This document shows, one piece after another, positions 2,763-34,371 of a stretch of DNA of 64,000 nucleotides. A program made the position numbers and the translations under genes. Source of the DNA: a virus; the IMG/VR virus record IMGVR_UViG_3300035181_001974. The stretch is one strand, 5' to 3'. The stretch's first letter is position 1, and the number at the start of each line of letters is the position of its first letter. Below the pieces are notes generated by a model. It was given only the letters and a program-made list of their open reading frames with translations, ran no database searches and had not been told where the DNA came from.

Positions 2763-2783
2763 TCACCCGTCAGATGAAGGAGT

Positions 2784-3044
2784 ATGATACGAACCATGAG
2801 CCACAAACTGAATGACACCGTTATCGCGCGTATTGCCCAGATCGTCCAGGAGGGCATGATCCTTGGCATTGACGTCGTCGATCTGATGCGCCAGATCGAG
2901 GTTGAACCTGCCGGCGATGGCGAGACGTTGACCTTGACCCCCGCCTACGTGGCATCCATCAAGCAGATGCACGAGAAGTTGCTCGCGGAAGCGCAGGAGC
3001 ATCAGCAGGCCCGTCAGGGTTCGAGCGTCATCTTCAAGAGTTGA
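2784..3044 (+). CDS. hypothetical protein
   Basis: 86-aa ORF, co-directional, no motif. Confidence 0.3.
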   Translation: MIRTMSHKLNDTVIARIAQIVQEGMILGIDVVDLMRQIEVEPAGDGETLTLTPAYVASIKQMHEKLLAEAQEHQQARQGSSVIFKS

Positions 3045-3895: not shown

Positions 3896-3910
3896 CTGAT
3901 ACGGTTTATC

Positions 3911-4372
3911 ATGCTCTCTCAATTTCTCGAATTTTTCAAGCGGACCTTCTGGTCACCCAAACCTCAGGCTCGAGTCATCGAAGTCAAGCCAGAGGATGAG
4001 AAGTTTCGCCCGCAGCGCAGAAATCGATGGGTCCTTGCAATCGAAGGTCTGGACACGTTCCTCGTTAAGAGCGCTCAGCTGCCGATGCTTTGGGCCGCAG
4101 CAGACCGCCAGTCATTCTTGACAGCGCAGTTTTACGAGATCGAAGGGCAATCGATCTACTCACAGTTTCAGGAGTGGTGTCAAGAGAAGAAGTCGCGCCA
4201 AGCCGTCTTCAAGTTCATCAATGCCGCCGGCAGCGCGACTGAAGTATGGACCATGACAGTCAAGCCACTGCACGCCACACCGCAGTTTCTTGACTACGGC
4301 GACCCGTCTCCCGTTATCACTGAGGTGGTGATGCAGGTCGAGAACATTCGCGTCGAAGTCACTGACGCTTGA
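3911..4372 (+). CDS. hypothetical protein
   Basis: 153-aa ORF. Confidence 0.35.
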   Translation: MLSQFLEFFKRTFWSPKPQARVIEVKPEDEKFRPQRRNRWVLAIEGLDTFLVKSAQLPMLWAAADRQSFLTAQFYEIEGQSIYSQFQEWCQEKKSRQAVFKFINAAGSATEVWTMTVKPLHATPQFLDYGDPSPVITEVVMQVENIRVEVTDA

Positions 4373-4628
4373 ACTTGATGCCCTTCATCACAAAGTAGGT
4401 TGAGATCAAGTCAAGCGCGTCAGACCAGTCGTTTTTGTCTTTGGCCTTTTCGACGGCAGTGTCGACCTCTTCCTGAGTGGCCTGCATCTTCTCGCCTGCC
4501 CATAGCAACATGTCGATGAATGCGTCGGCCTGCTTCTTGTCCTTGGGGACCTGCAGGTTGACAGGCGCCTCGCTCAGCATGATTTCGCTGATGAACTCAC
4601 GAAGTAGCGCGAGGGTGGATTTCGACAT
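4359..4628 (-). CDS. hypothetical small protein (only clear minus-strand gene in this region)
   Basis: 89-aa ORF, not overlapped by a stronger plus-strand ORF; convergent with 3911..4372. Confidence 0.35.
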   Translation of the reverse strand: MSKSTLALLREFISEIMLSEAPVNLQVPKDKKQADAFIDMLLWAGEKMQATQEEVDTAVEKAKDKNDWSDALDLISTYFVMKGIKFKRQ

Positions 4629-4720
4629 GACTATAAGTAGGCCTTTCGGGCCCGCGAGTGCCTGTGCACAATCGTTACTCGTTGGGGTAGGATGAAAGTA
4701 CCCTTACGGGAGGTGAAGAC

Positions 4721-5677
4721 ATGGACTTTGACGTCAAAAAGCGCACAATCCTCTACGTTCGGCACGGTTCTCACGCCTATGGCCTGAACGTCGCCACCTC
4801 TGACGAGGACTTCAAGGGCGTTGCCATCGCTCCCAAGGAGTACTACTTGGGCTTCATGAAGACGTTCGAGCAGGCGGAACACATGGGTTCCAAGAGCGAC
4901 GGCGTCGACTCGGTAACCTATGCCCTCAACAAGTTTGCTAGGCTCGCTGCCGACTGCAACCCGAACATCATCGAGATCCTCCACGTGGCCGACAGGCACG
5001 TGTTGAAGATCGACGAGTTCGGCGAAGAGTTGCGCAGCATCAAGGACGAGTTCTTGTCCAAGAAGGCGAAGTTCACCTTCTCGGGCTATGCCCATGCCCA
5101 GCTGCAGCGCATCAAGACGCATCGCTCGTGGTTGCTCAACCCGCCCAAGGAAGCTCCTTCGAGGAAGTCATTCGGACTTTCCGAGACGAGCAAGGTCTCG
5201 AAGTCGGAGTTGGGTGCCTACGATGCGGCAGTCGCCGACGGGATTGAGCTGGACCTGCCCAAGGACGTGCTGACCCTGTTCACGCGGGAGAAGCAGTATC
5301 AGGCTGCGAAGACGCACTACGACCAGTACGTCAACTGGCTCAAGACTCGGAACCCAGCTCGTGCCGAGCTTGAGGCCAAGTGGGGTTTTGACGTGAAACA
5401 TGGCATGCACCTGATTCGCCTCAAGACCATGGCCGTTGAAATCCTCGAAGACCATAAGGTCTACGTGGACCGTCAGGAACGTGGCGACCGCGAAGAGATC
5501 CTGGCGTATCGCCGGGGCGAGCACGACTACGATGCCCTGATTGAGCGTGCCGATGCACTGGAGAAACGTGCCAACGAGCTCTATGAGACCTCAACCCTGC
5601 GTCGAGAGCCCGACCGTAAGCTCATCGACAAATTCGTGGTGTCGATGACGGAGCGGTACCTGACGCTCCACGGCTGA
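4721..5677 (+). CDS. Pol-beta superfamily nucleotidyltransferase (RlaP-like, RNA-repair associated)
   Basis: N-terminal YVRHGSHAYGLNVATSDEDFKGV fits the nucleotidyltransferase GS...D.D fold motif; sits next to pnkp and near an RNA ligase. Confidence 0.5.
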   Translation: MDFDVKKRTILYVRHGSHAYGLNVATSDEDFKGVAIAPKEYYLGFMKTFEQAEHMGSKSDGVDSVTYALNKFARLAADCNPNIIEILHVADRHVLKIDEFGEELRSIKDEFLSKKAKFTFSGYAHAQLQRIKTHRSWLLNPPKEAPSRKSFGLSETSKVSKSELGAYDAAVADGIELDLPKDVLTLFTREKQYQAAKTHYDQYVNWLKTRNPARAELEAKWGFDVKHGMHLIRLKTMAVEILEDHKVYVDRQERGDREEILAYRRGEHDYDALIERADALEKRANELYETSTLRREPDRKLIDKFVVSMTERYLTLHG

Positions 5678-20676: not shown

Positions 20677-22362
20677 TTGTCGGTTTGCACAACCACACGG
20701 GCTTCTCGTAATGCGCCCTTCGATGGTTTGGGCTATCCCGATGAACACTTCAAGTGGTGCATGGAGAACGGGCTCGATGGCCATGCCATCACCGAGCACG
20801 GGAACATGAACTCCTATGCCCACGCTCAACTGTGGGTCGAGGAGTGGGCCAAGGCCAATAAGGGAAAGTCGTTCAAGTACATTCCCGGCGTCGAGGCGTA
20901 CTACCATCCCGACCTGGAGCAATGGAAGAAGGACGTCGAACTCGCAGAGCAGGCGAAGGGAGACAGGAGGGTTGCGGCCAAGCTTGCTAAGGAGCAGGAA
21001 AAGCTGCAGACCAAGATCATCGCCACCATCGATGAAAATGATGAGACTGAGGACATTGAGATGTCCAACGCCTTGACTGTCGAAAACGAGGAAGAGTCCA
21101 AATCGACCAAACACTTCAATCCCGTCAACCGACGGCATCACCTAGTCATTCTGCCCAAGAACCAGAAGGGCCTGTTGGCGATCTTCGCAGCATGTTCGAA
21201 GGGATTCTTGAAGGGCTTCTACAAGTTCCCGCGCATTGACCATGCTGTCCTCAAAGAGGCAGCCAAAGGCGGCGACATCATCGTCAGCAGCGCTTGTATC
21301 GGCGGCATGCCGGCGTACTCCATATTCCAGGAAATCCAACAGTACAAGTTTGACGAGCTCGACGCACGGTTGCTCAGTGACCCTGTGCTGCTCGAGAAAT
21401 GCGTTGTCGCGGTGGGCAATACCTACCAGCACATGGTCGATGCAGTCGGCGAAGGAAACTACTTCCTCGAGCTGCAGTTCAATCGCCTACCGGCGCAGAA
21501 CCTCGTCAACCGCGCGATCCTGGAGTTCGCTCGTCGCAATGGGCTCAACAAGCAGCTGATCGTCACCGGCGATGCTCACTACTATAATCCCGATCGTTGG
21601 AAGGACCGTGAGCTCTACAAGCGCCTGGGTTGGATGAACTACCAGGAGATCAATCCTGACGCGATTCCGAAGTCGAAGGATGAGCTGAAGTGTGAGCTCT
21701 ATCCGAAGAACGCCCAACAGATGTGGGATGAGTACCAGCGCTCCAAGGAAGGCACCGACTGGTATGACGATGAAGTCGTCTGTGACGCCATTGAGCGGAC
21801 TCACGATATCGCACACAGTGTCATCGGGGAGATTCCACCCGATCGTTCGCCCAAGTTTCCGACGAGGTTGTTGGTGCCCGAAGGCACGACCTCGTTCAAT
21901 CACCTCATCTCGCTTTGTAAGGTGGGCATGGTGAAGCGTGGTCTTCAAGACAAGCCAGAGTATATCGCGCGCCTCAAGGAGGAACTCGGCGTCATTAAGG
22001 TGATGAAAAACTCTGACTACTTCATTTCCTACCAGAAGATCATGGAGCTGGCACGCAATGTGTGCCTTACCGGCCCAGCCCGCGGTTGTTTCGTTCCTGA
22101 GACGCGGGTTCTAATGGCTGACGGCATGCATGCTCCCATTGGCACCATCAAGGTGGGCGACGTTATCAAGGATGCATATGGTGTTGATCAGATGGTGACT
22201 CAGATCTTCAGGTATCAGGTTGATGAGGAGCTGCTAGAACTCGAGTTTGATGACGGTAAGAAGATCAGGTGCACCAAGGAGCATAAGTTTCTGACGAAGA
22301 ATCGTGGGTGGATTGAAGCACAACACTTGACTGAAGATGATGACCTAATCGAGGTTGAATGA
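20677..22362 (+). CDS. dnaE: DnaE N-terminal extein (PHP + palm start) fused to N-intein 1; true start at 20618 in another frame (frameshift)
   Basis: frame A 20618..20710 encodes MTQQGKEDAKGSSVRVPRRFVGLHNHTGFS* (PHP motif), frame of ORF continues NAPFDGLGYPDEH...; N-intein 1 = 22087..22359 (CFVPETRVLMADG...LIEVE). Confidence 0.8.
   Translation: MSVCTTTRASRNAPFDGLGYPDEHFKWCMENGLDGHAITEHGNMNSYAHAQLWVEEWAKANKGKSFKYIPGVEAYYHPDLEQWKKDVELAEQAKGDRRVAAKLAKEQEKLQTKIIATIDENDETEDIEMSNALTVENEEESKSTKHFNPVNRRHHLVILPKNQKGLLAIFAACSKGFLKGFYKFPRIDHAVLKEAAKGGDIIVSSACIGGMPAYSIFQEIQQYKFDELDARLLSDPVLLEKCVVAVGNTYQHMVDAVGEGNYFLELQFNRLPAQNLVNRAILEFARRNGLNKQLIVTGDAHYYNPDRWKDRELYKRLGWMNYQEINPDAIPKSKDELKCELYPKNAQQMWDEYQRSKEGTDWYDDEVVCDAIERTHDIAHSVIGEIPPDRSPKFPTRLLVPEGTTSFNHLISLCKVGMVKRGLQDKPEYIARLKEELGVIKVMKNSDYFISYQKIMELARNVCLTGPARGCFVPETRVLMADGMHAPIGTIKVGDVIKDAYGVDQMVTQIFRYQVDEELLELEFDDGKKIRCTKEHKFLTKNRGWIEAQHLTEDDDLIEVE
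22087..22359 (+). other. N-intein 1 (91 aa), followed by stop
   Basis: C1 after GPARG; block A CFVPETRVLMADG..GTIKVGDVI; block B TKEHKFLT. Confidence 0.8.
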
Positions 22363-22446: not shown

Positions 22447-22944
22447 ATGAAGCTCAGAAGTAAGACTGTCGTACCGTATAAGGGTGAGGTCGTAGACCTG
22501 TGTGTGGAAAACAGCCACACTTACAACGTGGAAGGTATTGCAGTCCACAATTCGGGCGGTGGCTCTCTGGTCGCCTACGTCCTATACATCACCGACTTGG
22601 ACCCGTTGTTCTGGGACCTGCCTTTCGCGCGATTCCTTAGCGTTCACAGGTGTCTGTCGCCAGACACAAAGGTATTGATGTCAGATGGTTCGTCGTCCGC
22701 GCTTCGAGACGTGAAAGTCGGTGACAGCGTTGTCTCACAGGATGGCTCACACCGTAAAGTTACGTTCACCATGACCACAAAACATGAGAAGACGTACCGC
22801 GTGAAGGTGAATGGTACTACGTTCACGTGTTCTGAAAATCATGTGTGGTTGACAGTGGGTCCTGATGGACAACCTGTGAAGAAGTATACATCTGAGCTGT
22901 CGACGAGTGACGAGCTGTACACGTACCACTATGAGCATCATTGA
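22447..22944 (+). CDS. dnaE: C-intein 1 (22447..22551) + extein 2 (22552..22650) + N-intein 2 (22651..22941)
   Basis: [35 protein letters not shown]|[33 protein letters not shown]|[13 protein letters not shown]... Confidence 0.8.
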
Positions 22945-23872
22945 GAAACAGTGTAAACACTGTGGTATTATGTTTCAGTTCAACTATGAGCCCAACTGCA
23001 AGGGTTCTGGTAGTAGGCTCCATCGCCCGTACTGCACTGATGAGTGTGCCGTCGCTCACAGGAAGCTGATGTCACACGCTCCCATGCCCTCGAGGCTTGT
23101 GAAGACGTGCGTCGAGTACGGCGATGAGTTCTACGTTCCAAAGTGTCACAACAACAGAAAACTATGTTCGAATGCGTGCAGGCACAAGTACACTGCGAAA
23201 GCGCTGACAAAGAATGAGCTCCGTACACTGACATGTGTACAGTGTCTAGGCACTTTCTCAACGAAGAACGTCAATCGCAGGTTCTGTTCACCCAAATGTT
23301 TCGCTGCATCGAGGTTTGACCGCCACACGTTGGTATGCGAAGTTTGTAGCGAACCGATCGTCACCAAGAAGAGCTACGTGCCGCGGTTCTGTTCCAAACG
23401 GTGCACCCGCGAGGCACAGTCACGTGATATGGTTGCTTCACATGTGAACGGACGCTCGTGTTTTCGTTCCGACATCCTAAACAGCCCGTACTTCAAGAGC
23501 TCGTTCGAAGCCGACTACTACAGATATTGCTTGCACCTCGGTAAGATGCCATTCTATGAACATAGGTCTTTCCATGTTGTCATCGATGGCAAAGAGAAGT
23601 GTTACACTCCAGACTTTTGGTTCAGTGATGAGGACCGATACGTGGAGTTGAAAGGTGTGCGAGAAGGCAAATCGCGTTTCTCAAAGTTGCTTAACTCAAA
23701 CGCACGTTCACGGGAAGTCGTTGTGGCGTCTGGTCAGCGCATCGACGTCGTGTACATGAATGACTTCTATGGTGAACTTCGTCGACAAGGTTTGTACCAT
23801 ACGATTGCCAATCTAGAGCACAGGGACTATGCAGGAACCCAACATCTCATCAGCAAGCACGGCCAAAATTGA
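22907..23872 (+). CDS. free-standing homing endonuclease (multi CxxC zinc-ribbon + PD-(D/E)xK core) between halves of intein 2
   Basis: six or more CxxC pairs; C-terminal [17 protein letters not shown] = PD..(D/E)xK motif; nested between N- and C-intein 2. Confidence 0.65.
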
Positions 23873-24566
23873 AGCTATCGAGGTTGTCGATGAAAGTGTA
23901 GAACTCATCGACATCGAGGTCGAAGGCCAGCATACGTTTTGGGTGTCCAACAACGATAGCGATTGGGTGCTGACACATAACTCTGGTGCTCCTGATATCG
24001 ACTGCGTCCACGAGGACCATCTTGTCGTCATGACAGACGGCACTCATAAGCGAGCTGTTGACATCATTGTCGGCGACGTCGTCCTGGGAGGCGATGGAAT
24101 GCCACACGCAGTAACTGCGACCTATGCTAGAAATTTGCGGCCATTCGAGGACGCTGTCTGGGTCAGAGTTAGGGCCAATGATGGTACGTTGGGCCACATT
24201 TTGGTGGTGCCCGGTCACAAATTTGTCAGAGCTGACGGCGTCATCGTGTACTGCCGCGACCTTAAGGTCGGAGATGAATTGATGGCATCATGCGGCAGCG
24301 TTGAGGTCGTATCGATCGAGCACGGTGGTTGGGGCTCTTCCAACGCTAGATACGTCGACCTGACTGTTGAAGACGATCACAGATTCCACGTGGTACCGTT
24401 CAATACGTCCATTCTAAGTGGAGGTGATCCATCACATGACGTCGGTTATTGCATGGGCGTCATTCCTGGCACGTTCCTTGCGTGTGGCGAAGGAGACAAT
24501 TTTTGCAGCGATTGGTGCGCGTCTAAGAGAAGAACAGACCACAGCGAGCGCAACTATGAAATTTGA
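23829..24566 (+). CDS. dnaE: C-intein 2 (to 23981) + extein 3 SGAPDID (23982..24002) + N-part of intein 3 (24003..24563)
   Basis: ...VELIDIEVEGQHTFWVSNNDSDWVLTHN|SGAPDID|CVHEDHLVVMTDGTHKRAVDIIVGDVV...PGHKFV...RYVDLTVEDDHRFHVV then a non-extein-like tail. Confidence 0.7.
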   Translation: MQEPNISSASTAKIEAIEVVDESVELIDIEVEGQHTFWVSNNDSDWVLTHNSGAPDIDCVHEDHLVVMTDGTHKRAVDIIVGDVVLGGDGMPHAVTATYARNLRPFEDAVWVRVRANDGTLGHILVVPGHKFVRADGVIVYCRDLKVGDELMASCGSVEVVSIEHGGWGSSNARYVDLTVEDDHRFHVVPFNTSILSGGDPSHDVGYCMGVIPGTFLACGEGDNFCSDWCASKRRTDHSERNYEI

Positions 24567-24868: not shown

Positions 24869-26602
24869 TCACGCTGTGACGTCTAAGACGTAGCGAGAGT
24901 TGCTACAGCCATAGATGCGATAAACGCCGGCAGCCTCCGCTACCTGTTTTTCTGTTAGACCTTGCTTCTTGTTGGCTCGGTACTTGAACCTGTCGTAACG
25001 ATGCATGAAGTCAGTCCACCAGAAGCGAGCGACTGTGGTACCGTTGAACTTCATGCCTGAGGTGGCATAACCGTTTCCTCCCAAGCGATTGTCTGAGTAA
25101 GACATCAACCTCGCTGCATTGTTTTCTCTTGCTATAGCTTTTGCCTTTGATAGCAATTTTGACACCCCGCCTCGTACATGTGTGCCAAGCTTGAAGCACA
25201 GGCGAGCGATCTCAATCGTCGTTCTGTCTGCCCCATTTCGTGCCCACCTAAGGCTGCAGGCGCCTACGATTTCGCCCGATGAGGTTACCAATCGCACGGC
25301 AAATTGGGCCCTCACGTGACCGTCGAGGTGGCACTGATTGATGAATTCTCGAACTTCTTCGGGCTCGCAGCGTTCTGCTTTCAACTTACGCGCATCGACT
25401 TTGGTAGAAAACCCAAGGCGATGGCGCAACATGCTTTCGATTATCGGTCGTTTGTCGCGCCACTCATCCTCAAATAACGTGAAAAGCGATACGCCGGCTT
25501 TGAGGGACAGCAATCTCTTCTTTTCCGCGTGATCGTGCTCAAATCTATTGGCGGCCTCGCTGTGCCAGTATAGGCCATTGCACTCGATGGCAAACATGCG
25601 CGATGGAATGAGTATGTCGAGCTCCATTCCGCCGAGCGTCTTACGATCGCTAAGGACTGCGTCAGGTGCCAGCGTCTGGATAAATGCGTAGACGTCCTGT
25701 TGCCACCTGCTCGTTTTGTCTGACCAAGGCGGAAAGCAGGTGGGACACTTGGCCTCGTTGTTGAACACTGCGCCAACGCAACGCTCAAATATTGTTGAAC
25801 ATATCGTGCATTCGATGCGCGCTTTGGTGACAGTATCGACATATTCGTCAATGAGTTTAAGCTGCTTTTCTTTGAGGCGTTTTTGTACCTCGTCGTGCGT
25901 CAGCAACTTTGCCTTGCGCATTTTTTCAAGCGTTACGTCGCTAAAGAATCGTCCTTTCAACGAAGCGCTGATCTTCTTACTGCGAGATTCAATGATGCTA
26001 GACGTATCCTTTGTCAGGCCAAGTGACCAGCCGCTGTGCGTTGCATAATACCTCCGCAGGCTGTCGCTGATTTTTGCCGCCTTTTGTTTAAGGCTTTCGT
26101 TGTTTTCCTTTGTCTTGTCGGAGTTGTGGTGACCGTGTTCCTTGTAGTGAGCTCGCATGTTTGCAGCACTGGCTGACATGCGTTCGTCATTGTCTTTCGT
26201 CAGGCCTTTGTTCCATGACGAGGTGCCCTTGGACGCGTATGCGTGTTTTCGGCTACAACGTGGACACCGTTCGGGGTATCCTTTTTCTTGATCGATGAAC
26301 CTGACCCAGTCGCAACAATCGATGCACGTCTTCCTGCACCCTGGGTACCTTGTTTCATACACAACGACGGGTGATTTTTGGTGCGTTTTTGTGCAGTGCA
26401 ATGTCAACTTACGCCCGCTGTCATATGACGCCTCACACCACGGACACGCGTAAGTTGACACCTGTTTGGGAGGCCTGGCGTCTTCTCGCCTGTGTCGTGC
26501 CTCGTGGATCTTCAATGCTCGTAGCGTTTCGTGGTTTCGACCACAACGAGCGCATGTAAATTCAACTGTAGTTGAGTTAGGATTCATGTGATGGTCGTTC
26601 AT
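24869..26602 (-). CDS. homing endonuclease: C2H2 zinc fingers + NUMOD3 + Vsr-like (DUF559/EDxHD-type) nuclease + C-terminal GNAT-like domain; inserted antisense inside intein 3
   Basis: FTCARCGRNHETLRALKIHEARH and YACPWCEASY..HCTKTH fingers; NUMOD3-like GHHNSDKTKENNESLKQKAAKIS; nuclease core ELDILIPSRMFAIECNGLYWHSE...D; C-terminal RGGVSKLL...RFWWTD shared with 27288..29087. Confidence 0.7.
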   Translation of the reverse strand: MNDHHMNPNSTTVEFTCARCGRNHETLRALKIHEARHRREDARPPKQVSTYACPWCEASYDSGRKLTLHCTKTHQKSPVVVYETRYPGCRKTCIDCCDWVRFIDQEKGYPERCPRCSRKHAYASKGTSSWNKGLTKDNDERMSASAANMRAHYKEHGHHNSDKTKENNESLKQKAAKISDSLRRYYATHSGWSLGLTKDTSSIIESRSKKISASLKGRFFSDVTLEKMRKAKLLTHDEVQKRLKEKQLKLIDEYVDTVTKARIECTICSTIFERCVGAVFNNEAKCPTCFPPWSDKTSRWQQDVYAFIQTLAPDAVLSDRKTLGGMELDILIPSRMFAIECNGLYWHSEAANRFEHDHAEKKRLLSLKAGVSLFTLFEDEWRDKRPIIESMLRHRLGFSTKVDARKLKAERCEPEEVREFINQCHLDGHVRAQFAVRLVTSSGEIVGACSLRWARNGADRTTIEIARLCFKLGTHVRGGVSKLLSKAKAIARENNAARLMSYSDNRLGGNGYATSGMKFNGTTVARFWWTDFMHRYDRFKYRANKKQGLTEKQVAEAAGVYRIYGCSNSRYVLDVTA

Positions 26603-27445
26603 TCATTTTTGGCGTCCAACAAGAGCGTCGTTGTTCACAACACCGATCTTGCCAGGCGAGATGAGGTTCTTGATGAACTTCGAAACTTTTTTGGGTGGGA
26701 AAACGTCGTTCCCATCAGCAATTATAACTGTTTCAAACTAAAAACGCTTGTAAAGGATATCGGCAAGTTCTACGGCATCCCATTCGAGGAGACCAACGCT
26801 GCCACGCGGACCGTCGAGGACGAGGTCCGTAAGGCGACGATGAAGGAAGGCGACGACAAGAATCTGTTCGTCTTGACCTACGATGAGGCCATGGCCTTCC
26901 ACTGCAGGGCTCCTAAGGGCCCGGAGTCGAAGTCCATCTGCCAGGGCTGTAGCCCAGAGTGTAAGCAGCCGGTCAGCCCGTCGTTTCGCGGCTTCATTGA
27001 GAAGTACCCGGTCGTCGCCGAGTCGATCAAGATCCTCTTCAAGCAGAATCGTAGTCTCGGTCGTCACGCGGGTGGTGTGCTGATTGCAGACGATTTGCCC
27101 AACAAGATGCCTTTGGTGACGTCCAAAGGCAAGGCCGGCGTCCGCGAGCCACAGTCACCTTGGGTCGAGGGCGTAAATTATAAACACCTTGAGAAGATCG
27201 GAGAGTTCATCAAGTACGACCTCCTAGGTCTAGAAACGATGCGGCTCATCGAGCGCGCCATCGAGCTCATCATCAAAAAGGAACGACATGAAAGAGGGTG
27301 GTTTGAGATCCAACTCGACGATGGAACGACACGAGGCGTCTACGGCGACCAACGAATCGTCACCAGCAACAGGGGCACCATCCTTGCGAGGGAGCTCGGG
27401 CCCGGCGATGACATCGTGTCCTTCGAGGTGCCCACAGTGCAATGA
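26588..27445 (+). CDS. dnaE: very short C-part of intein 3 (at most 22 codons, ..HSFLASNKSVVVHN) + extein 4 (DnaE palm/fingers segment)
   Basis: VVVHN|TDLARRDEVLDELRNFFGWENVVPISNY..KTLVKDIGKFYGIPFEE aligns to E. coli [48 protein letters not shown]; later RHAGGVLIA, KYDLLGLETMRLIERAIELI; in-frame stop 3 codons upstream of the first listed start. Confidence 0.75.
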   Translation: MMVVHSFLASNKSVVVHNTDLARRDEVLDELRNFFGWENVVPISNYNCFKLKTLVKDIGKFYGIPFEETNAATRTVEDEVRKATMKEGDDKNLFVLTYDEAMAFHCRAPKGPESKSICQGCSPECKQPVSPSFRGFIEKYPVVAESIKILFKQNRSLGRHAGGVLIADDLPNKMPLVTSKGKAGVREPQSPWVEGVNYKHLEKIGEFIKYDLLGLETMRLIERAIELIIKKERHERGWFEIQLDDGTTRGVYGDQRIVTSNRGTILARELGPGDDIVSFEVPTVQ

Positions 27446-29087
27446 TCCATTGCGAAAAGCTAGCCTAAATTCGCTCCGCGCACATCTCCTTAAAAAGCAC
27501 GGGCTCAATGCGGAGGCTGCGTACCTTCTTTTTCGAGAGCACCCTGGACCGTGCGTTCAGTGTTCAGGGCCGGTCAAGTTCATGACCTTTCAAACGGGAT
27601 ATGAACGTCTCTGTGGAGTTTGTAGCAAGAAGAACTCTCAAGTAAGAGGTGCGCTTAGCCGGAAATCAAAATCATTGCCTGCATGGAACAAGGGGCTGTC
27701 AGAAACAACGTCTGAATCGGTTCGAAGGGCCGCACAAGGTTGTCGTGATTTCATCAAAAAACACGGGCACTGGAGAACAGGACAAACTAAAGAAAATAAT
27801 GAATCTATCACAAGAGCTGCGCATAACATCTCTCGAGCATTGACTGAAAAATGGCAAGTAGAAAAACACTGGACGCAGCACGGTCAGACGTCAGAAACTG
27901 ACGATAGGATCAAACGGCGATCAGAACGGATCGGCGAAGGCGTTCGCTTGAATCATTGGTCTCGGAACGCTAATTCTGAAGATATCAAACGTTCGATCAT
28001 CGAGACTAGAAAACGCCTTATCGAGAACGGCACTAACTCTCCTTTTCGGTTGTCTCTCGAAGAGGTCGAACGGCGAGTTGATGCACTGCGGTCGAGGTGG
28101 AACATCGAAAAATTTGAGTTTGCTGGATACTCAACACCGGTGCATGTGACATGCGTCAGTTGTAACGTACCTGATATTGTTCCCTTTAACGTCCTTTACA
28201 AGGGAAAGGTGTGTTCAACGTGCTACCCGGCTAATTTCTCTCGCTGGCATCGTGAGGTGTTCGATTTCTTCGTCAAGCTCGATTCGAACGCCATCGCCAA
28301 CGACAGACAGTCAATCGCGCCTTATGAGCTGGACATCGTGTCAGGTAACGGAAGGATTGCCATCGAGTGCAACGGTGTCTATTGGCACAGTGAGGCGACC
28401 GGTACTCCACCATCGTATCACCAAGACAAGTCGACTCGCGCTCTTGAGCGTGGTGTGTCGTTGCTACATATCTTCGACGATGAATGGCACCATGATGTAA
28501 AGAAAAACATCATCAAAAGCATGATCAGGGTAAAGCTTGGTCTTGCTACTCGCGTGATGGCACGAAAGCTACATCTTCGCAGCGGTCGTCCAGCCATCAC
28601 CGCTCAGTTCATGGCGAACAATCACCTCGATGGAAACACTCCTTCGTCGCATTCGTTCTGGCTAGAGGACATTGCTGGAAACATTATTTGTGCATTGACA
28701 TTGCGAAAACCGCACCAGCAGACTAAGTGGGGATCTAAGACAATTGAATTGGCGCGGGTTTCAACGGCCCGCGATACCATCGTCGTTGGAGGCATGTCGC
28801 GGTTGATCAACGCTGCCAGGGATTGGTCACGTGAGCATGGTTACCAAAAAATGATCACATACCGTGACATGAGGTTGGGTGGCACTGGCCGGGCGTATGA
28901 ACTATCTGGTTTTAGATTTGATCACATGACGCAGCCTAGGTTTTGGTGGACGGACGGACAAAATCGTATCGATAGATTTGCTGTCAGGGCGATTCCGGGG
29001 ATCGCATCACAAGAAGAGATGGCGATGGAACACAGGCTTTTTAAGATCTTTGGTTGCTCCAACGCGGTGTACGTTATGGACCTGTGA
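27411..29087 (+). CDS. homing endonuclease (paralog of 24869..26602) inserted directly in the dnaE extein; ORF track start 27288 is probably an overlap artefact
   Basis: Zn-finger/NUMOD3-like N-terminus, Vsr-like core ELDIVSGNGRIAIECNGVYWHSE, C-terminal GGMSRLI...RFWWTD...FGCSNAVYVMDL domain. Confidence 0.65.
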   Translation, partial: TSCPSRCPQCNDPLRKASLNSLRAHLLKKHGLNAEAAYLLFREHPGPCVQCSGPVKFMTFQTGYERLCGVCSKKNSQVRGALSRKSKSLPAWNKGLSETTSESVRRAAQGCRDFIKKHGHWRTGQTKENNESITRAAHNISRALTEKWQVEKHWTQHGQTSETDDRIKRRSERIGEGVRLNHWSRNANSEDIKRSIIETRKRLIENGTNSPFRLSLEEVERRVDALRSRWNIEKFEFAGYSTPVHVTCVSCNVPDIVPFNVLYKGKVCSTCYPANFSRWHREVFDFFVKLDSNAIANDRQSIAPYELDIVSGNGRIAIECNGVYWHSEATGTPPSYHQDKSTRALERGVSLLHIFDDEWHHDVKKNIIKSMIRVKLGLATRVMARKLHLRSGRPAITAQFMANNHLDGNTPSSHSFWLEDIAGNIICALTLRKPHQQTKWGSKTIELARVSTARDTIVVGGMSRLINAARDWSREHGYQKMITYRDMRLGGTGRAYELSGFRFDHMTQPRFWWTDGQNRIDRFAVRAIPGIASQEEMAMEHRLFKIFGCSNAVYVMDL

Positions 29088-29105
29088 AAGTACCTTTACA
29101 AAGAC

Positions 29106-29582
29106 ATGGCAAAAGTCGTTGCTAACGTTGACGCACATACAAATGCGGTATCATTCAATGACATCAAGACCTGGTTCGAGCAGCACATGCACCCGGCCGT
29201 CATTGATTTCACCGATCCCAAACCTTACGAGGTCTACGAGAAAGGCAAGTGGGCAGGCATCTTCCAGTGCGTCGACCAGGACACGGCAGTGCTGATGGGC
29301 GATGACTCGTACAAGTTGATCAAGGACGTCCATGTCGGTGACGAGGTGACGGTCTTCGATGAAGTCAAGCAGCAGTTCACCACATCAGTCGTCGACGTCG
29401 TTTACGACCAAGGACCCAAGGAGTGCATCGAGCTCGTGTTCGACGACGGCAAGAAGCTTGTCTGCACCGCTGATCATCCCATCTTGACGAAGAATCGCGG
29501 GTGGGTTGAGGCACAGCACCTAACCGAAGACGACGAGTTGATTGGGTCTAGCAGTGGTTACGAAGCTCGTGGATTGACGTGA
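29106..29582 (+). CDS. dnaE: extein 5 (29106..29267) + N-intein 4 (29268..29579)
   Basis: AVIDFTDPKPYEVYEKGKWAGIFQ|CVDQDTAVLMGDDSYKLIKDVHVGDEV...; N-intein 4 tail (LVFDDGKKLVCTADHPILTKNRGWVEAQHLTEDDELI) is paralogous to the N-intein 1 tail. Confidence 0.75.
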   Translation: MAKVVANVDAHTNAVSFNDIKTWFEQHMHPAVIDFTDPKPYEVYEKGKWAGIFQCVDQDTAVLMGDDSYKLIKDVHVGDEVTVFDEVKQQFTTSVVDVVYDQGPKECIELVFDDGKKLVCTADHPILTKNRGWVEAQHLTEDDELIGSSSGYEARGLT

Positions 29583-29666
29583 GGCGGGCGTTTTGGTCGC
29601 AGGTTTCGCCGCGACCGTGGCCATGTCGCCTTACAGAGACGCAACAGGCCCACGACTCCGCAACAT

Positions 29667-30056
29667 GTGATTGTACGGACGCGCTCCGCTCATCGTAGCG
29701 CCCCTTTGTACTTTCTGCACTCAGCGGGCAACGGGAACGGAAAGAATGGCGTCGTCGACCTGTATGACAACTGGCGTCATTGCATGGACGAGGGCTTCAG
29801 CGAGGAGGAGATCAGGATCCAGCTCACAAGAGAGGCGTACATGATCTTCCATCGTCAATGACCGACGTTGGAGCTCTTTAAGCGGGTGTACGTGGAAGTC
29901 AAGGGCTGGTGGCGTGATGATGCTAGGGAGAAGTTTGACGCATTCGTAACGTTGCATCCGACGCTCAAGTGTGCACTTGTCAGTGGATATGACCTACAGT
30001 TGCTAGAAAAGAAGGAGACGACGCTTGAAGCTTGTGTCATCACGCAGCGTGGGTAA
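29667..30056 (+). pseudogene. decayed homing-endonuclease relic (PD-(D/E)xK core) between halves of intein 4, with in-frame TGA at 29859..29861
   Basis: ...MIFHRQ*PTLELFKRVYVEVKGWWRDDAREKFDAF resembles [15 protein letters not shown] of HEG 22907; far too short for a functional HE. Confidence 0.5.
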
Positions 30057-30624
30057 GCGCCACGTCTACGACATCGAGGTGCGAAATCATCATAATTTCG
30101 TCGCTAACGACGTCGTTGTTCACAATTGCACGGGCCAGGGCGCTCAGCGACTCTTTGTCAAAGGCAAGCCCAAGAGCATCATCGACATCGCGACGCTGAC
30201 CAGCATCTATCGCCCGGGTCCCTTGGCCGCCAAAGTCGATCGACTGTACTTGGAGGCGAAGAATGACGGCAAGGAGTTGGAGTGGGGCGATCACCGCGTC
30301 AACGACATCCTGAAGAAGACATACTCGTGTTTGACGGGTGACACACATATCCTTACTGAGCAAGGTGAGGTTCCCATTAGACAAATCGTTGAACAAGGAA
30401 TGGTGGGAACTAAGCTTCCGTCATACAATGAAATGACGAAGACCGTCGAGATGGACGAAGTTGTCGCTGTCGCCTCAAACGGCGTACGTGACATCATCGA
30501 GGTTGAGCTGGAGGGTGGAGAAACTTTGTCTTTGACTGAAGATCACCTTGTCATGACGCCTCGTGGTTGGGTGCAAGCAGGTGAACTGACGTCTGAAGAC
30601 GAGATTTTGGGAATGAAGTACTGA
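30025..30624 (+). CDS. dnaE: C-intein 4 (30025..30126) + extein 6 (30127..30327) + N-intein 5 (30328..30621)
   Basis: MKLVSSRSVGKRHVYDIEVRNHHNFVANDVVVHN|CTGQG..IATLTSIYRPGPLAAKVDRLY...KKTYS|CLTGDTHILTEQGEVP...; IYRPGPL matches DnaE ALFRPGPL. Confidence 0.8.
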   Translation: MKLVSSRSVGKRHVYDIEVRNHHNFVANDVVVHNCTGQGAQRLFVKGKPKSIIDIATLTSIYRPGPLAAKVDRLYLEAKNDGKELEWGDHRVNDILKKTYSCLTGDTHILTEQGEVPIRQIVEQGMVGTKLPSYNEMTKTVEMDEVVAVASNGVRDIIEVELEGGETLSLTEDHLVMTPRGWVQAGELTSEDEILGMKY

Positions 30625-30630
30625 AACCAG

Positions 30631-30830
30631 GCTACTTCGTCGTGCCATCACTCAACCTCATCATCGAGTACGACGGCGACTATTGGCACAGTAACCCAGC
30701 GAAGCATGAACTAACACCTGCGATGAAGAAGCAATTTAGGCTTGATCAATTATGGACGCTTGCCACAAGAACTTGAGGCTTCACGGTGTACCGCGTCTGG
30801 GAGTCTGATGCCTTGAACTATCACCTCAAA
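30631..30830 (+). pseudogene. Vsr-like (DUF559/EDxHD-type) nuclease-core relic with in-frame stop, between halves of intein 5
   Basis: YFVVPSLNLIIEYDGDYWHSNPAKHE...RLDQLWTLATRT*GFTVYRVWESD matches only the catalytic core of HEGs 24869/27411/31990; no DNA-binding region. Confidence 0.5.
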
Positions 30831-30847
30831 TTGAGGACAATTTAGAC

Positions 30848-31093
30848 ATGAAGATTGATGATTTTGAAGAGGAGTTGCTTACGTCGTTCAAGAACTTTAT
30901 CAACACGATGAAGTCACATACGGCATTTGGAAAGCGTGATGATCTCACGTATGCCGACTGGTTCGACACATTTCGAGCTTATGAAGAGGTCGGAAATGAT
31001 ATGGAGCTCGAATACCATGGTCAACGTGTTTTGAGTGTTGATGGACCAGTGTGCCAACTCTGCGCATCATCATTGAACATGAAAGAAAAATGA
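30848..31093 (+). CDS. hypothetical small protein inside intein 5 gap
   Basis: 81-aa ORF. Confidence 0.35.
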   Translation: MKIDDFEEELLTSFKNFINTMKSHTAFGKRDDLTYADWFDTFRAYEEVGNDMELEYHGQRVLSVDGPVCQLCASSLNMKEK

Positions 31094-31094
31094 T

Positions 31095-31412
31095 ATGAGC
31101 GCAGATCTTTACACTAGCGAGATCGATGACGATGTTTATGGATCTCTAACGCTAGAGATGAACGTTCATGGGAATTTGCGAATCATTGCATATGATCCTG
31201 GGACTAGAGATTTGGTAGGTTGCTGTCAGTTTCCACCCTCGCATGAGGGTTTCAACGAAGCCCAACGATTGATCAACGCTTTGCAAGAATGGATGCGTCA
31301 TGTGGGGGAAAATCTCAACCCTTGCCGAGTCGTTCTAGGCAGTGATGCTTTGTCGCGCTCAATGTCATTACACATTGTTTGTCAGACTCATCGTGAAACG
31401 GAGCGTAAGTGA
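31095..31412 (+). CDS. hypothetical small protein inside intein 5 gap
   Basis: 105-aa ORF, start 1 nt after previous stop. Confidence 0.35.
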   Translation: MSADLYTSEIDDDVYGSLTLEMNVHGNLRIIAYDPGTRDLVGCCQFPPSHEGFNEAQRLINALQEWMRHVGENLNPCRVVLGSDALSRSMSLHIVCQTHRETERK

Positions 31413-32110
31413 TGCCTGACGTAGTTCCCGTCAAGATCCGTGCGATCAAGCGTGTTCCTGCACAGCCTGTGTACGACATCCAGGTCAAGAAGAACAACAA
31501 CTTCTTCGCAAATGGCCTTCTCGTGCATAACTGCATAATTTTTCAGGAACAGGTGATGGAACTCGCCGAGAAGGCTGCCGGCTTCCCGAAGGACAAGTGT
31601 GACGAGGTCCGTCGCGCAATCATGAAGCGCAGCATCTCGGGCGGTGAGGCGGCAAAGAAGGCAGCCCAAGAGACCCGTGACGGGTTCGTCAAGGGTTGCA
31701 TCGCCAACGGTTATACCGAGAAGGTGGCCAACAACCTCTACGACAAGATTCTGTACTTCGCGGGCTACGGCTTCAATAAAAGTTTGTACTTTTCGGAACC
31801 AGTAAATACCTTTTTTTCAGACGGCACGTTCAAAGAGACAAAGCAGCTTCAACACATCGAACCCGGCGACCTGGTCATGTCTCGTGATGAGAATTCAGGT
31901 AAAAACATCCTCGTCCCTGTTGTTGCAAAACACGACCACGGTGAGCTAGACTTGGTAGAAGTGGAGTTGGTGACCGGAGAGAAGGTAAAGTGCACGTGGG
32001 ATCACAAGTTCAGGACGAAGGAGACAAACGAGATGTTGCCCCTGTGGATGATTGCCGAACGGGGCCTCAGCATCGTTGTGACCGATGTAGCAGGCTCTTC
32101 GTCTACCTGA
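31409..32110 (+). CDS. dnaE: C-intein 5 (31409..31531) + extein 7 (31532..31780) + N-intein 6 (31781..32107, Ser1)
   Basis: ...PVYDIQVKKNNNFFANGLLVHN|CIIFQEQVMELAEK...KILYFAGYGFNK|SLYFSEPVNTFFSDGTFKE...TWDHKF; extein matches E. coli GIILYQEQVMQIAQ...VEKFAGYGFNKS. Confidence 0.8.
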   Translation: MMPDVVPVKIRAIKRVPAQPVYDIQVKKNNNFFANGLLVHNCIIFQEQVMELAEKAAGFPKDKCDEVRRAIMKRSISGGEAAKKAAQETRDGFVKGCIANGYTEKVANNLYDKILYFAGYGFNKSLYFSEPVNTFFSDGTFKETKQLQHIEPGDLVMSRDENSGKNILVPVVAKHDHGELDLVEVELVTGEKVKCTWDHKFRTKETNEMLPLWMIAERGLSIVVTDVAGSSST

Positions 32111-33039
32111 AGGCCTACGAAAAACACCAAGCTAGGTGCCAAGGATTCATACTCGGTGACAGTGAGAGTGTCACATGCCAAGTCTGTGGCTTCACGGGTA
32201 AGGCACTGGCAAAGCACTTGTCGGGGACGCATGGTATGAGCAAAGAAGAATACCTGAAAGCGTACCCGACTGCCGCAATCACATCGAAAGTCTCGACAGC
32301 GCGTTTCAAGCATCGTGGGCAGAATTTCGCCTGGCTCAAACGAGCGAAGGCACGCGGTGATGATTTGACTGCCTACAAGGAAAAGATGGGCCGTGCGGTC
32401 AGTGAGGCCATCACGAGCAATCCGGGCGAGAGGAAACGTCGCTCTGAACTAATGGGAGAACTTAATCGACGACCTGAAGCCCGTAAACGTTCATCAGACG
32501 TTGCAAGACTAACGTCAACCCGGCCTGAGATACTCAAGGCACGTGCTGAGCGCCTGGCCCGTTGGCGTGAGTTGAACCCCGATGAGTTCTACGAAAAGTG
32601 CACAAAAGCTGCACATGCTATTTGGCATAGCATTCCGGAATTAGCGTTGTTTGATTTGTTGAAAAACGTTGAAGGTTATGATTTTGTTCATAATCAGGTC
32701 GTCAAGTCAGTTGCTTTTCCAAACAAATCTAAAAGAAAGCAAGTTGACATTGCCGATCGATCAAGACACATTTATGTTGAATTTGATGGAATCATCCATT
32801 TTAATGCACGTATTAAAGGCGAGGATAATTTTGAACGAGTGAAGTGCATGGATGCAATGCTTGATGATTACATCACTAAACATGATTGGACACTCATTCG
32901 AATTTCTTACGATCAGTTCTCATACAAGGATGGCGGTCGCTTCGAACCTGATTGCTTGAAAAAGCTTTTTGAGATCCTGAAAGATCCTCGACCTGGCGTT
33001 CATCGGATAGGAAAAGCGTATGAAAAGACCGCCGTTTGA
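31990..33039 (+). CDS. free-standing homing endonuclease (Zn finger + basic NUMOD-like linker + Vsr-like core) between halves of intein 6
   Basis: CDRCSRL..HQARCQ and CQVCGF..H finger; core HIYVEFDGIIHFNARIKGEDN...LIRISYDQF (DUF559/Vsr pattern). Confidence 0.65.
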   Translation: MHVGSQVQDEGDKRDVAPVDDCRTGPQHRCDRCSRLFVYLKAYEKHQARCQGFILGDSESVTCQVCGFTGKALAKHLSGTHGMSKEEYLKAYPTAAITSKVSTARFKHRGQNFAWLKRAKARGDDLTAYKEKMGRAVSEAITSNPGERKRRSELMGELNRRPEARKRSSDVARLTSTRPEILKARAERLARWRELNPDEFYEKCTKAAHAIWHSIPELALFDLLKNVEGYDFVHNQVVKSVAFPNKSKRKQVDIADRSRHIYVEFDGIIHFNARIKGEDNFERVKCMDAMLDDYITKHDWTLIRISYDQFSYKDGGRFEPDCLKKLFEILKDPRPGVHRIGKAYEKTAV

Positions 33040-33244
33040 AATCGCACTGAATGACATTGCCCAACGCATGGGTCTGAGTCCGATCGAACTGTTACGGGCC
33101 GCGGCACGTTACCGACGCAAAAGCGAAACGAAGGTTGAACTCCAGCCGACTGACGAGTACATTGAAGAAGAGTATGCTAAAGCAATGCTTGATGAACCGA
33201 ACGCAGGAGCGATCGAAGACCTGTTGAAGGACCTGCTCACATGA
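33020..33244 (+). CDS. hypothetical small protein
   Basis: 74-aa ORF between HEG6 and C-intein 6. Confidence 0.3.
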   Translation: MKRPPFEIALNDIAQRMGLSPIELLRAAARYRRKSETKVELQPTDEYIEEEYAKAMLDEPNAGAIEDLLKDLLT

Positions 33245-34371
33245 GTAACATCAAGTCTATCACACCCGTGGGTCGACACCAGACCTATGACCTCGAAGTC
33301 GATCACCCGGATCACCAGTTCTATCTCGCTAACGGGATACTGACGTCTAACAGCCATGCAGTGGCATACGCCATTGACAGCTTCTGGTGCGCCTGGCTGA
33401 TGACATATCACGAGGAGGAATGGCTGTGTGCCTATCTCGAAAGCATGTCGCACACTCCTGCTCAACGTGCTAAGGCGTTCAGCGAGGTAAAGGCCTTGGG
33501 CTATCAGATCGTCCCGATCGACATCAACCTGGCGGGGCTCGGGTGGACCGCGCTGCCCGGCAAGAAGTTGATGCCGTCGATGACGTCCTGCAAGGGTGTC
33601 GGCGACTCGGCGGTCGAAGAGATCATGGCCAACCGTCCCTACAACACTATCGAGGAGTTGCTGTGGGATGACAACTTCGAGTGGAAACACAGCAAGTTCA
33701 ACAAGAAGGCGATGGAGGCCCTGGTCAAGATCGGTGCCTTCGGCAGTATGGACATCGTGGGCGAAGGCAAGGTCTTCAACAACTATCATCACATGCACGA
33801 GGTCCTCTTCGGTTCTCACGTGGAGACCGTGACCAAGAAGCGCAAGGGCGTCGAGGTCACCGAAGAGGTCGACATCGATCACGGGGCGTTGATCAAGCGA
33901 CACCCGAAGTCTGACCCGCACGAGGGCCTTAAGAACTTCTACCAGTTGGTCAGGGACTACGCTGACATCGAGGACTGGTCGTCTTCTGAACGTGCTCAAA
34001 ATATGGTCGACGTCTTCGGTGCTTTGGACGTCACCGCCATGATTGACATCGAAATCTTGGCTGCCTTGGAGAAGAAGGGCGTCAATAGCATTGACGACCT
34101 GGAGCACGGTGACACGGCGGTCGTCTGGTTTGTCACGGCCCCTGTTGCTGCAAAGAAGGGTGGCAAGCCGGTGACGGGCATCAAGAAGAAGACCCGCAAT
34201 GGCAAGGAATATGTGCAAATCTTTGCGGTTGGACCCACTGGCAAGGCCACGAAGATTTCTGTCTGGGGCGGCAAGGAGCTTCCTGACCCCTTCATCCTGT
34301 GTTGTGCCGAGGTCAAGAGGGACGACTTTGGCGCGTCGACGACGGTCTGGAAGTTGAGGGAAATCACGTAA
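33241..34371 (+). CDS. dnaE: C-intein 6 (33241..33351, ends TSN) + extein 8 = DnaE C-terminal region (fingers end, OB domain)
   Basis: MSNIKSITPVGRHQTYDLEVDHPDHQFYLANGILTSN|SHAVAYAIDSFWCAWLMTYH..; LGYQIVPIDINLAG matches E. coli GLKILPPDINSG; KGVGDSAVEEIMANR matches KGVGEGPIEAIIEAR. Confidence 0.8.
   Translation: MSNIKSITPVGRHQTYDLEVDHPDHQFYLANGILTSNSHAVAYAIDSFWCAWLMTYHEEEWLCAYLESMSHTPAQRAKAFSEVKALGYQIVPIDINLAGLGWTALPGKKLMPSMTSCKGVGDSAVEEIMANRPYNTIEELLWDDNFEWKHSKFNKKAMEALVKIGAFGSMDIVGEGKVFNNYHHMHEVLFGSHVETVTKKRKGVEVTEEVDIDHGALIKRHPKSDPHEGLKNFYQLVRDYADIEDWSSSERAQNMVDVFGALDVTAMIDIEILAALEKKGVNSIDDLEHGDTAVVWFVTAPVAAKKGGKPVTGIKKKTRNGKEYVQIFAVGPTGKATKISVWGGKELPDPFILCCAEVKRDDFGASTTVWKLREIT

Follow-up and report, generated by a model that had tools for sequence, protein, structure and literature searches.

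The window analysed here is a 64,000-nucleotide stretch of viral DNA, IMG/VR record IMGVR_UViG_3300035181_001974, in which the gene for the alpha subunit of DNA polymerase III (Pol III alpha, DnaE) occupies the region from 20.6 to 34.4 kb as eight open reading frames (ORFs), all on the plus strand. Recognisable split-intein halves are found at six of the junctions between these pieces (1/2, 2/3, 3/4, 5/6, 6/7 and 7/8). Junction 4/5 (27284-29144) is the sole dnaE junction without a complete split intein. Here, piece 4 ends in a non-DnaE tail and piece 5 opens with a short head, and a free-standing homing endonuclease gene (HEG) lies between the two. The tail is homologous to the last part of the N-terminal half of a split intein (Int-N) and the head aligns to the first strand of the C-terminal half (Int-C), the catalytic parts are gone, and tail and head are conserved in ~100 relatives. 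The element is probably the domesticated stump of a split intein, unable to splice but acting as a bracket on which the two chains of this phage DnaE dock.

Extra sequence at the palm/fingers boundary

The extein of piece 4 reads from 26642 to ...AIELIIKKE and ends at 27283, where it adjoins the tail codons (27284-27442) and their stop (27443-27445). Piece 5, from 29106, reads MAKVVANVDAHTN, then AVSFNDIKTWFEQHMHPAVIDFTDPKPYEVYEKGKWAGIFQ, and then enters a canonical Int-N (CVDQDT...). Since unsplit relatives read ...ELILQKEGNPSPTFDDIKAWYE... across the site, the N-extein can be taken to stop at about KKE and the sequence to resume at about (N)AVSF. Unsplit loci, which read ...KEGNPSPTFDDIK..., make up 56 of the ~90 related loci, and neither the tail nor the head, both additional sequence, occurs in them. 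The site is the boundary between the palm and fingers domains: the match to PF07733 ends at the last position of that family and the match to PF17657 begins at position 12. The upstream extein (26642..27283) is modelled by AlphaFold2 (AF2) with a predicted local distance difference test score (pLDDT) mostly above 85, and Foldseek matches the model to E. coli and Taq Pol III alpha.

Piece 4 (to 27445), the HEG (27408-29087) and piece 5 (from 29106) all lie on the plus strand, an arrangement of two adjacent housekeeping-gene ORFs with a free-standing HEG. An earlier reading of this DNA from its letters alone (the first-pass annotation) had the ORF positions and peptide strings at the junction right, with the extein from 26642, and had recognised the free-standing HEG between two dnaE pieces. 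The end of that gene at 29087 stands, but its start moves one codon upstream, from 27411 to the ATG at 27408; likewise, the tail is a non-DnaE sequence ending in a stop, as had been said, but is 53 residues long rather than ~40.

Intein homology of the tail and head

When a profile of 78 tails is compared with the canonical Int-N profile of the same gene family, hhalign gives a probability of 97.5% (E 5e-12), the match covering Int-N columns 53-97, that is, the last ~44 residues of the Int-N, with block B (N3) and N4. Against all Protein Data Bank (PDB) sequences, the tail profile scores best with the NrdJ-1 split intein (residues 75-107, E 5e-6), below which further HINT proteins are mixed with unrelated weak matches. 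A hidden Markov model (HMM) of the tail matches, at E 1e-8 to 1e-12, the block B of each canonical Int-N, both in the window and in the relatives (8e-11 for the Int-N of junction 5/6), whereas its matches to block A regions are weak, at ~1e-3 or worse. The first-pass annotation had likened the tail to a degenerate block A lacking Cys1; the likeness is instead to block B, with TxxH replaced by YGDQ. The HINT fold has an internal pseudo-symmetry, which may explain the earlier impression.

Predicted structure agrees with the profiles. With a 71-sequence alignment, AF2 models the tail as five strands at pLDDT 92-96, and in a Foldseek search with this model the hits that follow the Pol III alpha structures are mostly inteins, matched over 37-42 residues with a root-mean-square deviation of 1.4-2.0 Å (MchDnaB-1, Mtu RecA, Msm DnaB and Pho RadA, with NrdJ-1 and Npu DnaE also listed). 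The head was placed by comparing 17 fused tail+head pairs with fused canonical split inteins, which aligns it on the first Int-C strand (probability 97.4%, E 9e-12, 66 columns). For comparison, this strand reads MSNIKSITPVG in an Int-C of the window, and in Npu it reads MIKIATRKYLG. In working split inteins, the segments on either side of the N4/C2 break form two long antiparallel strands (PMC2677866). By alignment, the segments surviving at junction 4/5 are exactly those that border this canonical break point, and together they represent about one third of the HINT fold.

The homology is detectable only by profile-profile or profile-PDB comparison. Single-sequence Pfam scans of piece 4, of the 78 tails and of fused tail+head sequences from the window, the relatives and phage T4 gave no intein match, and a phmmer search with the tail alone against 1.84 billion representatives returned eight matches, of which five are DnaE tails and three are spurious (repeat proteins). 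A fused tail+head construct modelled by AF2 without an alignment reached a pLDDT of 36, too low to be of use. MAFFT alignments that mixed N-pieces and C-pieces were misaligned, setting the canonical Int-N of the C-pieces beneath the tail, and were not used, although the misplacement is itself an illustration of the homology.

The same comparisons bear on the origin that the first-pass annotation had favoured, in which insertion of the endonuclease gene duplicated a target-proximal DnaE segment, so that both flanks would align to the same part of DnaE. WFE does occur in both flanks (GWFEIQ and TWFEQH), both near one E. coli segment. However, WFE is all that the flanks share (TGGTTTGAG / TGGTTCGAG); there is no DNA repeat longer than 8 nt (E > 0.3) and no protein similarity between them, and the tail profile never matched the DnaE junction segment of unsplit relatives, matching intein blocks only. 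The GW[FY]E of the tail is an intein-like motif (compare [KR][ED]C[IV]EL in the canonical Int-N and GEWFTFEL in T4 gp39), and the W[YF]E of the C-extein consists of ordinary conserved DnaE residues that are also present in unsplit relatives. A duplication is thus almost certainly not the explanation.

Loss of the catalytic parts

At the six intact junctions, the intein begins with Cys or Ser, its last two residues are HN or SN, and Ser, Thr or Cys follows at +1; the block-B His is present in all six and the full T/SxxH in five, junction 3/4 having VPGH. At junction 4/5, neither block A nor residue 1 is present: alignment of the tail begins only at Int-N column 53, with ~50 N-terminal intein residues gone, and nothing lies between ...KKE and the block-B-like segment, leaving no space for block A. 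The first inserted residue after the extein, which in a split intein would be Cys, Ser or Thr (or Ala in classes 2 and 3), is variable (R/G/E/Q/N), and the TxxH positions, YGDQ in the window, hold Thr in only four and His in only one of the 78 tails. Blocks F and G are likewise absent, the heads being 9-16 residues long and aligned to the strand before block F, and neither a terminal HN nor an Asn is conserved among 52 heads. The +1 residue is Ala in the window and F, V or A in the relatives, with no conserved Cys, Ser or Thr nucleophile; unsplit relatives have ...P(T/S)F at the position of the head/extein junction.

Judged by its sequence, junction 4/5 lacks every catalytic feature of a split intein, and protein splicing is very unlikely, since the junction has no block A with Cys1, no block F or G, no terminal HN and no +1 nucleophile. 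The first-pass annotation had held that no intact intein lies here, and a functional C-block at the start of the 29106 ORF with a nucleophile at +1, which would have spoken against it, was looked for and not found. The profile comparison with Hint blocks that it proposed does reveal intein homology, with the tail corresponding to Int-N block B/N4 and the head to the first Int-C strand. Its view that the polymerase should consist of at least two chains, as does the NrdA protein of Aeromonas phage Aeh1, is supported.

It could be supposed that the ~53 + 13 residues form an atypical mini split intein that trans-splices non-canonically to give a single-chain polymerase. The HINT homology is clear, the locus has a ‘fractured gene’ arrangement (PMC2677866), and the end of the window head, ...AHTN, is superficially like HN. 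However, ~66 residues are too few for the HINT active site, which takes ~130, TxxH is lost in 95-99% of tails, no terminal Asn is conserved, the +1 residue (A/F/V) is never a conserved C/S/T, the residue after the extein (R, G, E, Q and others) is unconserved, and there is no block A with its residue 1, nor a block F or G. Such splicing is very improbable.

Conservation of the pair and variability of the gap

Most of 112 piece 4 homologues end in a related tail. With metagenomic loci added, there are 94 distinct homologous tails of 44-72 residues, none of them interrupted. They are of two types, ERKxRGWFExELDDG...YGDQ..V.TSNRG..LAR[DE]L..GDD[IV]VSF (type 1) and [KQ]GG[IM].E.E.[DE]G...RL.....V.L.DG..V....L...DD[IV]..P.E. 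(type 2), and they remain open and alignable down to ~45% extein identity, keeping length, frame, hydrophobic pattern and the DD motif. On the other side of the gap, 52 C-terminal pieces open with 9-16-residue heads that fit M[AS]K[IV][TK]S[IV]K.. and lead into the extein F.D[IV]K.W[YF]. Head type follows tail type: GWFE...TSNRG tails are accompanied by AKVVAN/AVVKSV heads, and G[IM].E.E.DG tails by KITSI heads. In 95% of tails, the last 18 residues carry a net negative charge (mean -3.0), and 77% of the heads carry a net positive one (mean +1.5).

What lies between tail and head is far less constant. The gap is nearly empty in two loci (85 nt from stop to extein resumption in L040, 326 nt in L002), holds GIY-YIG genes in L005, L008, L019, L020 and L027, and holds zinc-finger/Vsr-like genes in the window, L048, L053 and L060. 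In L034, L047, L051 and L060, the tail- and head-bearing halves are parted by 2.5-3.6 kb of unrelated genes, and in L054, L058, L072 and L079 the C half was not found within the remaining 2.4-5 kb of sequence. In these eight loci the halves behave as independent genes, like the cyanobacterial dnaE-n and dnaE-c. Locus L002 is without inteins altogether and encodes 775 residues ending in the tail and 510 residues starting with the head.

Among close relatives, split alleles are mixed with unsplit ones (L001 and L013, at 81% identity, are unsplit; P0002, at 82%, is split), as expected for a mobile cassette. In one lineage (protein P0073, L100:3001-4398; loci L100-L102), the tail and head are shortened and joined in frame within DnaE (...ILQRRASIQFDTGEWAFPVSDDAIEKLNVGDSYDNKKITFIQHKCTNVSFEDIKNWY...), and this fusion is present on four contigs from at least three samples or sequencing runs. 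Either tail and head were fused again once the endonuclease gene had been lost, or the fusion is a contiguous ancestor, and since it is a natural in-frame fusion, the element is able to stay inside the protein. An apparent presence or absence of the HEG among contigs with an identical N-piece was rejected, as it reflected gene-calling differences on 100% identical DNA.

Tail and head might instead be neutral debris of an intein or endonuclease insertion, translated by chance of stop and start position, the halves of the polymerase associating through their normal domain interface. The tail does evolve faster than the extein, single-sequence searches find no family, and AF2 leaves the head undocked (see below). 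Nevertheless, since the pair is conserved in ~100 diverged relatives whatever the gap holds, even where there is no endonuclease gene, tail and head are better regarded as having retained a function. Chance translation sits poorly with 94 tails that keep their length, frame, hydrophobic pattern and DD motif, with one pattern common to 52 heads, and with a systematic charge complementarity. Codon composition also speaks against it, the GC content at third codon positions being 0.70 in the tail, 0.70-0.78 in the exteins and 0.52 in the HEG, so that the tail is ameliorated to its extein. Neutral debris therefore seems improbable. For the same reason, although the first-pass suggestion that a seventh intein once lay at this site is upheld, its description as possibly ‘decayed’ is misleading.

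The endonuclease gene as passenger

The HEG at junction 4/5 encodes an N-terminal C2H2-like zinc finger, NUMOD-like repeats, a putative Vsr/EDxHD-like nuclease core and a GNAT-like C-terminal domain. It strongly matches phrog_3339, annotated as ‘homing endonuclease’ (E 8e-60). Its start overlaps the end of the tail by 38 nt. A segment with the motif AIE.NG.YW (RIAIECNGVYWHSEA) gives a weak match to I-Bth0305I (PDB 3r3p, E 0.5), and the match to Pfam MTES_1575 REase (E 0.006) is below the cut-off. A paralogue, 32% identical, lies inside another split intein of the same gene (24869-26602, minus strand). The HEG and piece 5 share a frame and are only one stop and six codons apart; a readthrough fusion was dismissed, frames and gap contents differing among relatives.

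The endonuclease gene is an exchangeable passenger. It probably spreads by homing and co-converts its flanks, so that the whole tail-stop-HEG-start-head unit moves with it.

A proposed non-covalent bracket

In the mechanism proposed here, junction 4/5 would be a truncated, catalytically dead split-intein remnant of which only the parts bordering the split site are left. The N half would keep N3/N4 of the Int-N (~45 residues, five beta-strands, an acidic end) and the C half the first Int-C strand (~10-13 residues, basic), whilst the chemical parts that adjoin the exteins (block A with residue 1, TxxH, block F, block G with HN, and +1) have been lost, so that no peptide bond would be made. The six intact split inteins would ligate pieces 1-4 and pieces 5-8 into two polymerase chains, predicted to be a 777-residue N chain with PHP, palm, thumb and tail and a 543-residue C chain with the head and everything from the fingers to the C-terminus. 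Tail and head would then pair as the halves of working split inteins do, by electrostatic capture followed by an antiparallel beta-strand zipper, with no chemistry, and the pair would be a non-covalent bracket that holds the two polymerase halves, or aids their folding, at the palm/fingers boundary.

Several points weigh against this reading. AF2 left the head undocked (pLDDT ~43), in a run that gave the head no alignment depth and is uninformative on docking. The pairing of tail and head is inferred. A confident model of the tail does not depend on the head, and the tail may thus be a domain in its own right that has another partner. In Aeh1 NrdA, the a/b heterodimer forms without the tails, which are required only for higher-order assembly (PMC3045599), and by this analogy ‘docking of two halves’ may be an oversimplification. 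The halves of Pol III alpha may also be held together unaided by the palm-fingers interface. Descent from an intein resident at the site is argued by homology only, since no full-length intein was found at exactly this site among 267 proteins and 108 loci. Finally, the tail evolves faster than the extein in pairwise identity (0.48 for the tail and 0.72 for the extein in type 1; 0.32 and 0.64 in type 2).

Some of these points would suit a tail that is a functional domain but not the partner of the head, which binds another replisome component or DNA, or regulates the endonuclease or immunity, the head being a mere leader peptide. The confident fold of the tail alone and the Aeh1 precedent are compatible with this, as is the corresponding T4 insertion, which lies outside the TOPRIM domain and makes no DNA contact. 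However, the head is conserved and falls precisely on the Int-C strand to which the last Int-N strand binds in genuine split inteins, the types of head and tail vary together, their charges are opposite, and the P0073 fusion keeps both parts adjacent. A tail with some other partner is thus unlikely, and a bracket formed by tail and head is preferred.

Comparison with known split genes

Junction 4/5 fits a class of HEG-split genes with interaction tails; to judge from their conservation, the tail and head here may be retained in the mature chains and act in assembly or activity. In Aeh1 nrdA-a/mobE/nrdA-b, the tails are kept in the mature chains and are essential for activity (Friedrich 2007; Crona et al. 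2011, PMC3045599). As here, an essential replication-related gene is split by a free-standing HEG, and tails of opposite charge are present that unsplit homologues lack; there is no splicing, as is predicted here. The authors found no database match for the tails and speculated on a degenerate split intein (PMC3045599). The DnaE tails, in contrast, are HINT-homologous (E 5e-12), number 94 with 52 heads and persist without the HEG. The Aeh1 tails are AT-rich like their HEG, whereas the DnaE tails have a host-like codon composition, and the genes concerned are nrdA with an HNH mobE in one case and dnaE with a Vsr/EDxHD-like or GIY-YIG HEG in the other. The polarity of charge also differs, Aeh1 having a basic C-tail and an acidic N-tail, opposite to the DnaE tail and head. 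The DnaE polarity is that of the cyanobacterial DnaE, NrdJ-1, NrdA-2 and IMPDH-1 split inteins, in which the end of the Int-N is acidic and the Int-C basic (PMC2677866).

The second case is T4 gp39/mobA/gp60, where cryo-electron microscopy has revealed that gp39's C-terminal tail and the N-terminal head of gp60 form a ~70-residue pendant ‘assembly bracket’ (Xin et al. 2024, PMC11461880; PDB 8yo3). Inteins are not mentioned in that paper (PMC11461880). The gp39 tail GEWFTFELNGDTIIVNENDEVQINGKWITVGEL scores E 0.002 against the DnaE tail profile across the PDB, at rank 3 after two inteins, and T4 tail+head compared with the DnaE pairs gives an hhalign probability of 91% (E 1e-6). The gp60 head MKFVKIDSSS resembles DnaE heads. 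The T4 tail ends short of the last acidic strand, however, and the T4 head is longer (~30 residues) than those of DnaE. When T4 tail+head was compared directly with canonical inteins, the result was not significant. A link of T4 to the DnaE tail family is probable on these alignments; intein ancestry of the T4 parts would be transitive, because it rests on the DnaE tails as intermediate. The mobA-split T4 topoisomerase may thus carry the same intein-derived bracket.

Two further systems invite comparison. ‘Fractured genes’, such as the NrdJ-1, gp41-1 and DnaE-1/2/3 loci, are interrupted by a free-standing HEG with a split-intein half on either side (Dassa et al. 2009, PMC2677866). The six other dnaE junctions of the window are ordinary members of this group, and NrdJ-1 is the best PDB match of the tail, but its members have six HINT motifs and five catalytic residues and trans-splice, whereas junction 4/5 has only a degenerate N3, N4 and the strand before C2. 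In the cyanobacterial Ssp and Npu systems, as proposed here, DnaE comes from two genes whose products first associate through intein halves, and the halves lie far apart, as in some of the relatives. Their insertion site is in the fingers, though, and their inteins are fully catalytic and give a covalent polymerase, whilst junction 4/5 is at the palm/fingers boundary.

No account of a module of this kind came up in a full-text literature search on degenerate, remnant or inactive inteins.

The dnaE locus and its other junctions

The features of the locus, with the T4 genes used for comparison, are given in Table 1. The source of the window is an uncultured large phage, and an exact copy of piece 4 is present on metagenomic contigs of up to 309 kb. 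A nucleotide search with 26500-29700 against GenBank phages gave no match, and protein-level searches found only DnaE-like genes of ≤31% identity in Streptomyces, Bacillus and Rhodococcus phages, so that there is no close cultured relative or annotation to rely on. A scan of GTDB genomes gave five distant contigs from metagenome-assembled genomes and no clue to the host.

Table 1. Coordinates of dnaE pieces, junction 4/5 features and free-standing endonuclease-like genes in the window, and of the T4 genes compared with them
Feature	Sequence	Position	Strand	Basis or remark
dnaE piece 1		20677-22362	+	
dnaE piece 2		22447-22944	+	
Endonuclease-like gene, free-standing		22907-23872		
dnaE piece 3		23829-24566	+	
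Endonuclease-like gene, free-standing		24869-26602	-	
dnaE piece 4		26588-27445	+	
Int-C of junction 3/4 intein, in piece 4	VMVVHSFLASNKSVVVHN	26588..26641	+	Block G HN, then Thr +1; sets start of piece 4
DnaE extein, end of Pol III alpha palm/NTPase domain	to ...ELIIKKE	26642..27283	+	PF07733 110-260/260, E 8e-13; alignment of unsplit relatives
Piece 4 C-terminal tail, 53 residues + stop; putative split Int-N N3 (block B)/N4 remnant	RHERGWFEIQLDDGTTRGVYGDQRIVTSNRGTILARELGPGDDIVSFEVPTVQ	27284..27445	+	Profile and structure comparison
Free-standing homing endonuclease gene, 559 residues		27408..29087	+	phrog_3339 E 8e-60; phrog_559 E 7e-50
dnaE piece 5		29106-29582	+	
Piece 5 N-terminal head, 13 residues; putative first Int-C beta-strand remnant	MAKVVANVDAHTN	29106..29144	+	Absent from unsplit relatives; fused-profile alignment
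DnaE extein, start of fingers domain	AVSFNDIKTWFEQ...GIFQ	29145..29267	+	PF17657 12-46; alignment of unsplit relatives
Canonical Int-N of junction 5/6	Cys1; block B CTADH	29268..29582	+	Pfam Intein_splicing, PT-HINT, Hint
dnaE piece 6		30025-30624	+	
dnaE piece 7		31409-32110	+	
Endonuclease-like gene, free-standing		31990-33039		
dnaE piece 8		33241-34371	+	
T4 gene 39 (L094, AF158101)	gp39 C-terminal tail GEWFTFELNGDTIIVNENDEVQINGKWITVGELRKNL, then stop	3778-5328		
T4 gene 60 (L094, AF158101)		2458-2990		

Natural split inteins are reported to break between N4 and C2, the terminase intein being an exception (PMC2677866). The intein of junction 3/4 (Int-N 24003-24566; Int-C 26588-26641) is split between blocks F and G. 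Its Int-N, of ~187 residues, holds the first Int-C-like strand and block F (VEVVSIEHGG...RYVDLTVEDDHRFHVV), leaving an Int-C of ~17-18 residues (MMVVHSFLASNKSVVVHN, followed by T at +1). An Int-C of 16-25 residues with the pattern M..HSFL....SVVVHN, followed by [TSC]D, opens 40 of the 112 piece 4 homologues. We know of no natural split intein described with an Int-C so short, and the ~17-residue length is attractive for semisynthetic protein labelling. The endonuclease gene of this intein (24869-26602) is on the opposite strand. At the end of piece 3 (24390-24566), a Cys-rich extension (...GYCMGVIPGTFLACGEGDNFCSDWCASKRRTDHSERNYEI, then stop) runs beyond the HINT part of the Int-N and may be a leftover zinc- or DNA-binding piece of a formerly in-frame endonuclease domain.

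The gap of split intein 5/6 (29583-30024) contains short ORFs only and no full endonuclease gene; one of them, ORF 29868-30056 (...RVYVEVKGWWRDDAREKF...), resembles the C-terminus of a PD-(D/E)xK/Vsr-like nuclease and may be a decayed endonuclease gene. The gap of split intein 6/7 (30625-31408) has small ORFs at 30848-31093 and 31095-31412, a lower GC content (0.42-0.45) and no evident endonuclease motifs.

Implications

How genes split by HEGs are kept functional has been worked out in two cases only, Aeh1 NrdA and T4 topoisomerase II. In both, the tails were without detectable relatives and an intein origin was speculative, and junction 4/5 now gives evidence at the sequence level, from ~100 members. 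A wider proposal is that split inteins have been domesticated into a portable non-covalent heterodimerisation module that travels with free-standing HEGs, and that this is the general origin of the tails of HEG-split phage genes, including T4 gp39/gp60 and possibly Aeh1 NrdA; this generalisation is tentative, with the chances somewhat against it. A natural, non-splicing pair of ~45 and ~12 residues that forms an acidic/basic strand zipper could serve as a small heterodimerisation tag. For the evolution of inteins, junction 4/5 would represent an end state in which association is kept and the chemistry lost. For the phages that carry it, the bracket predicts a replicative Pol III alpha that would be a non-covalent heterodimer, split at the palm/fingers boundary.

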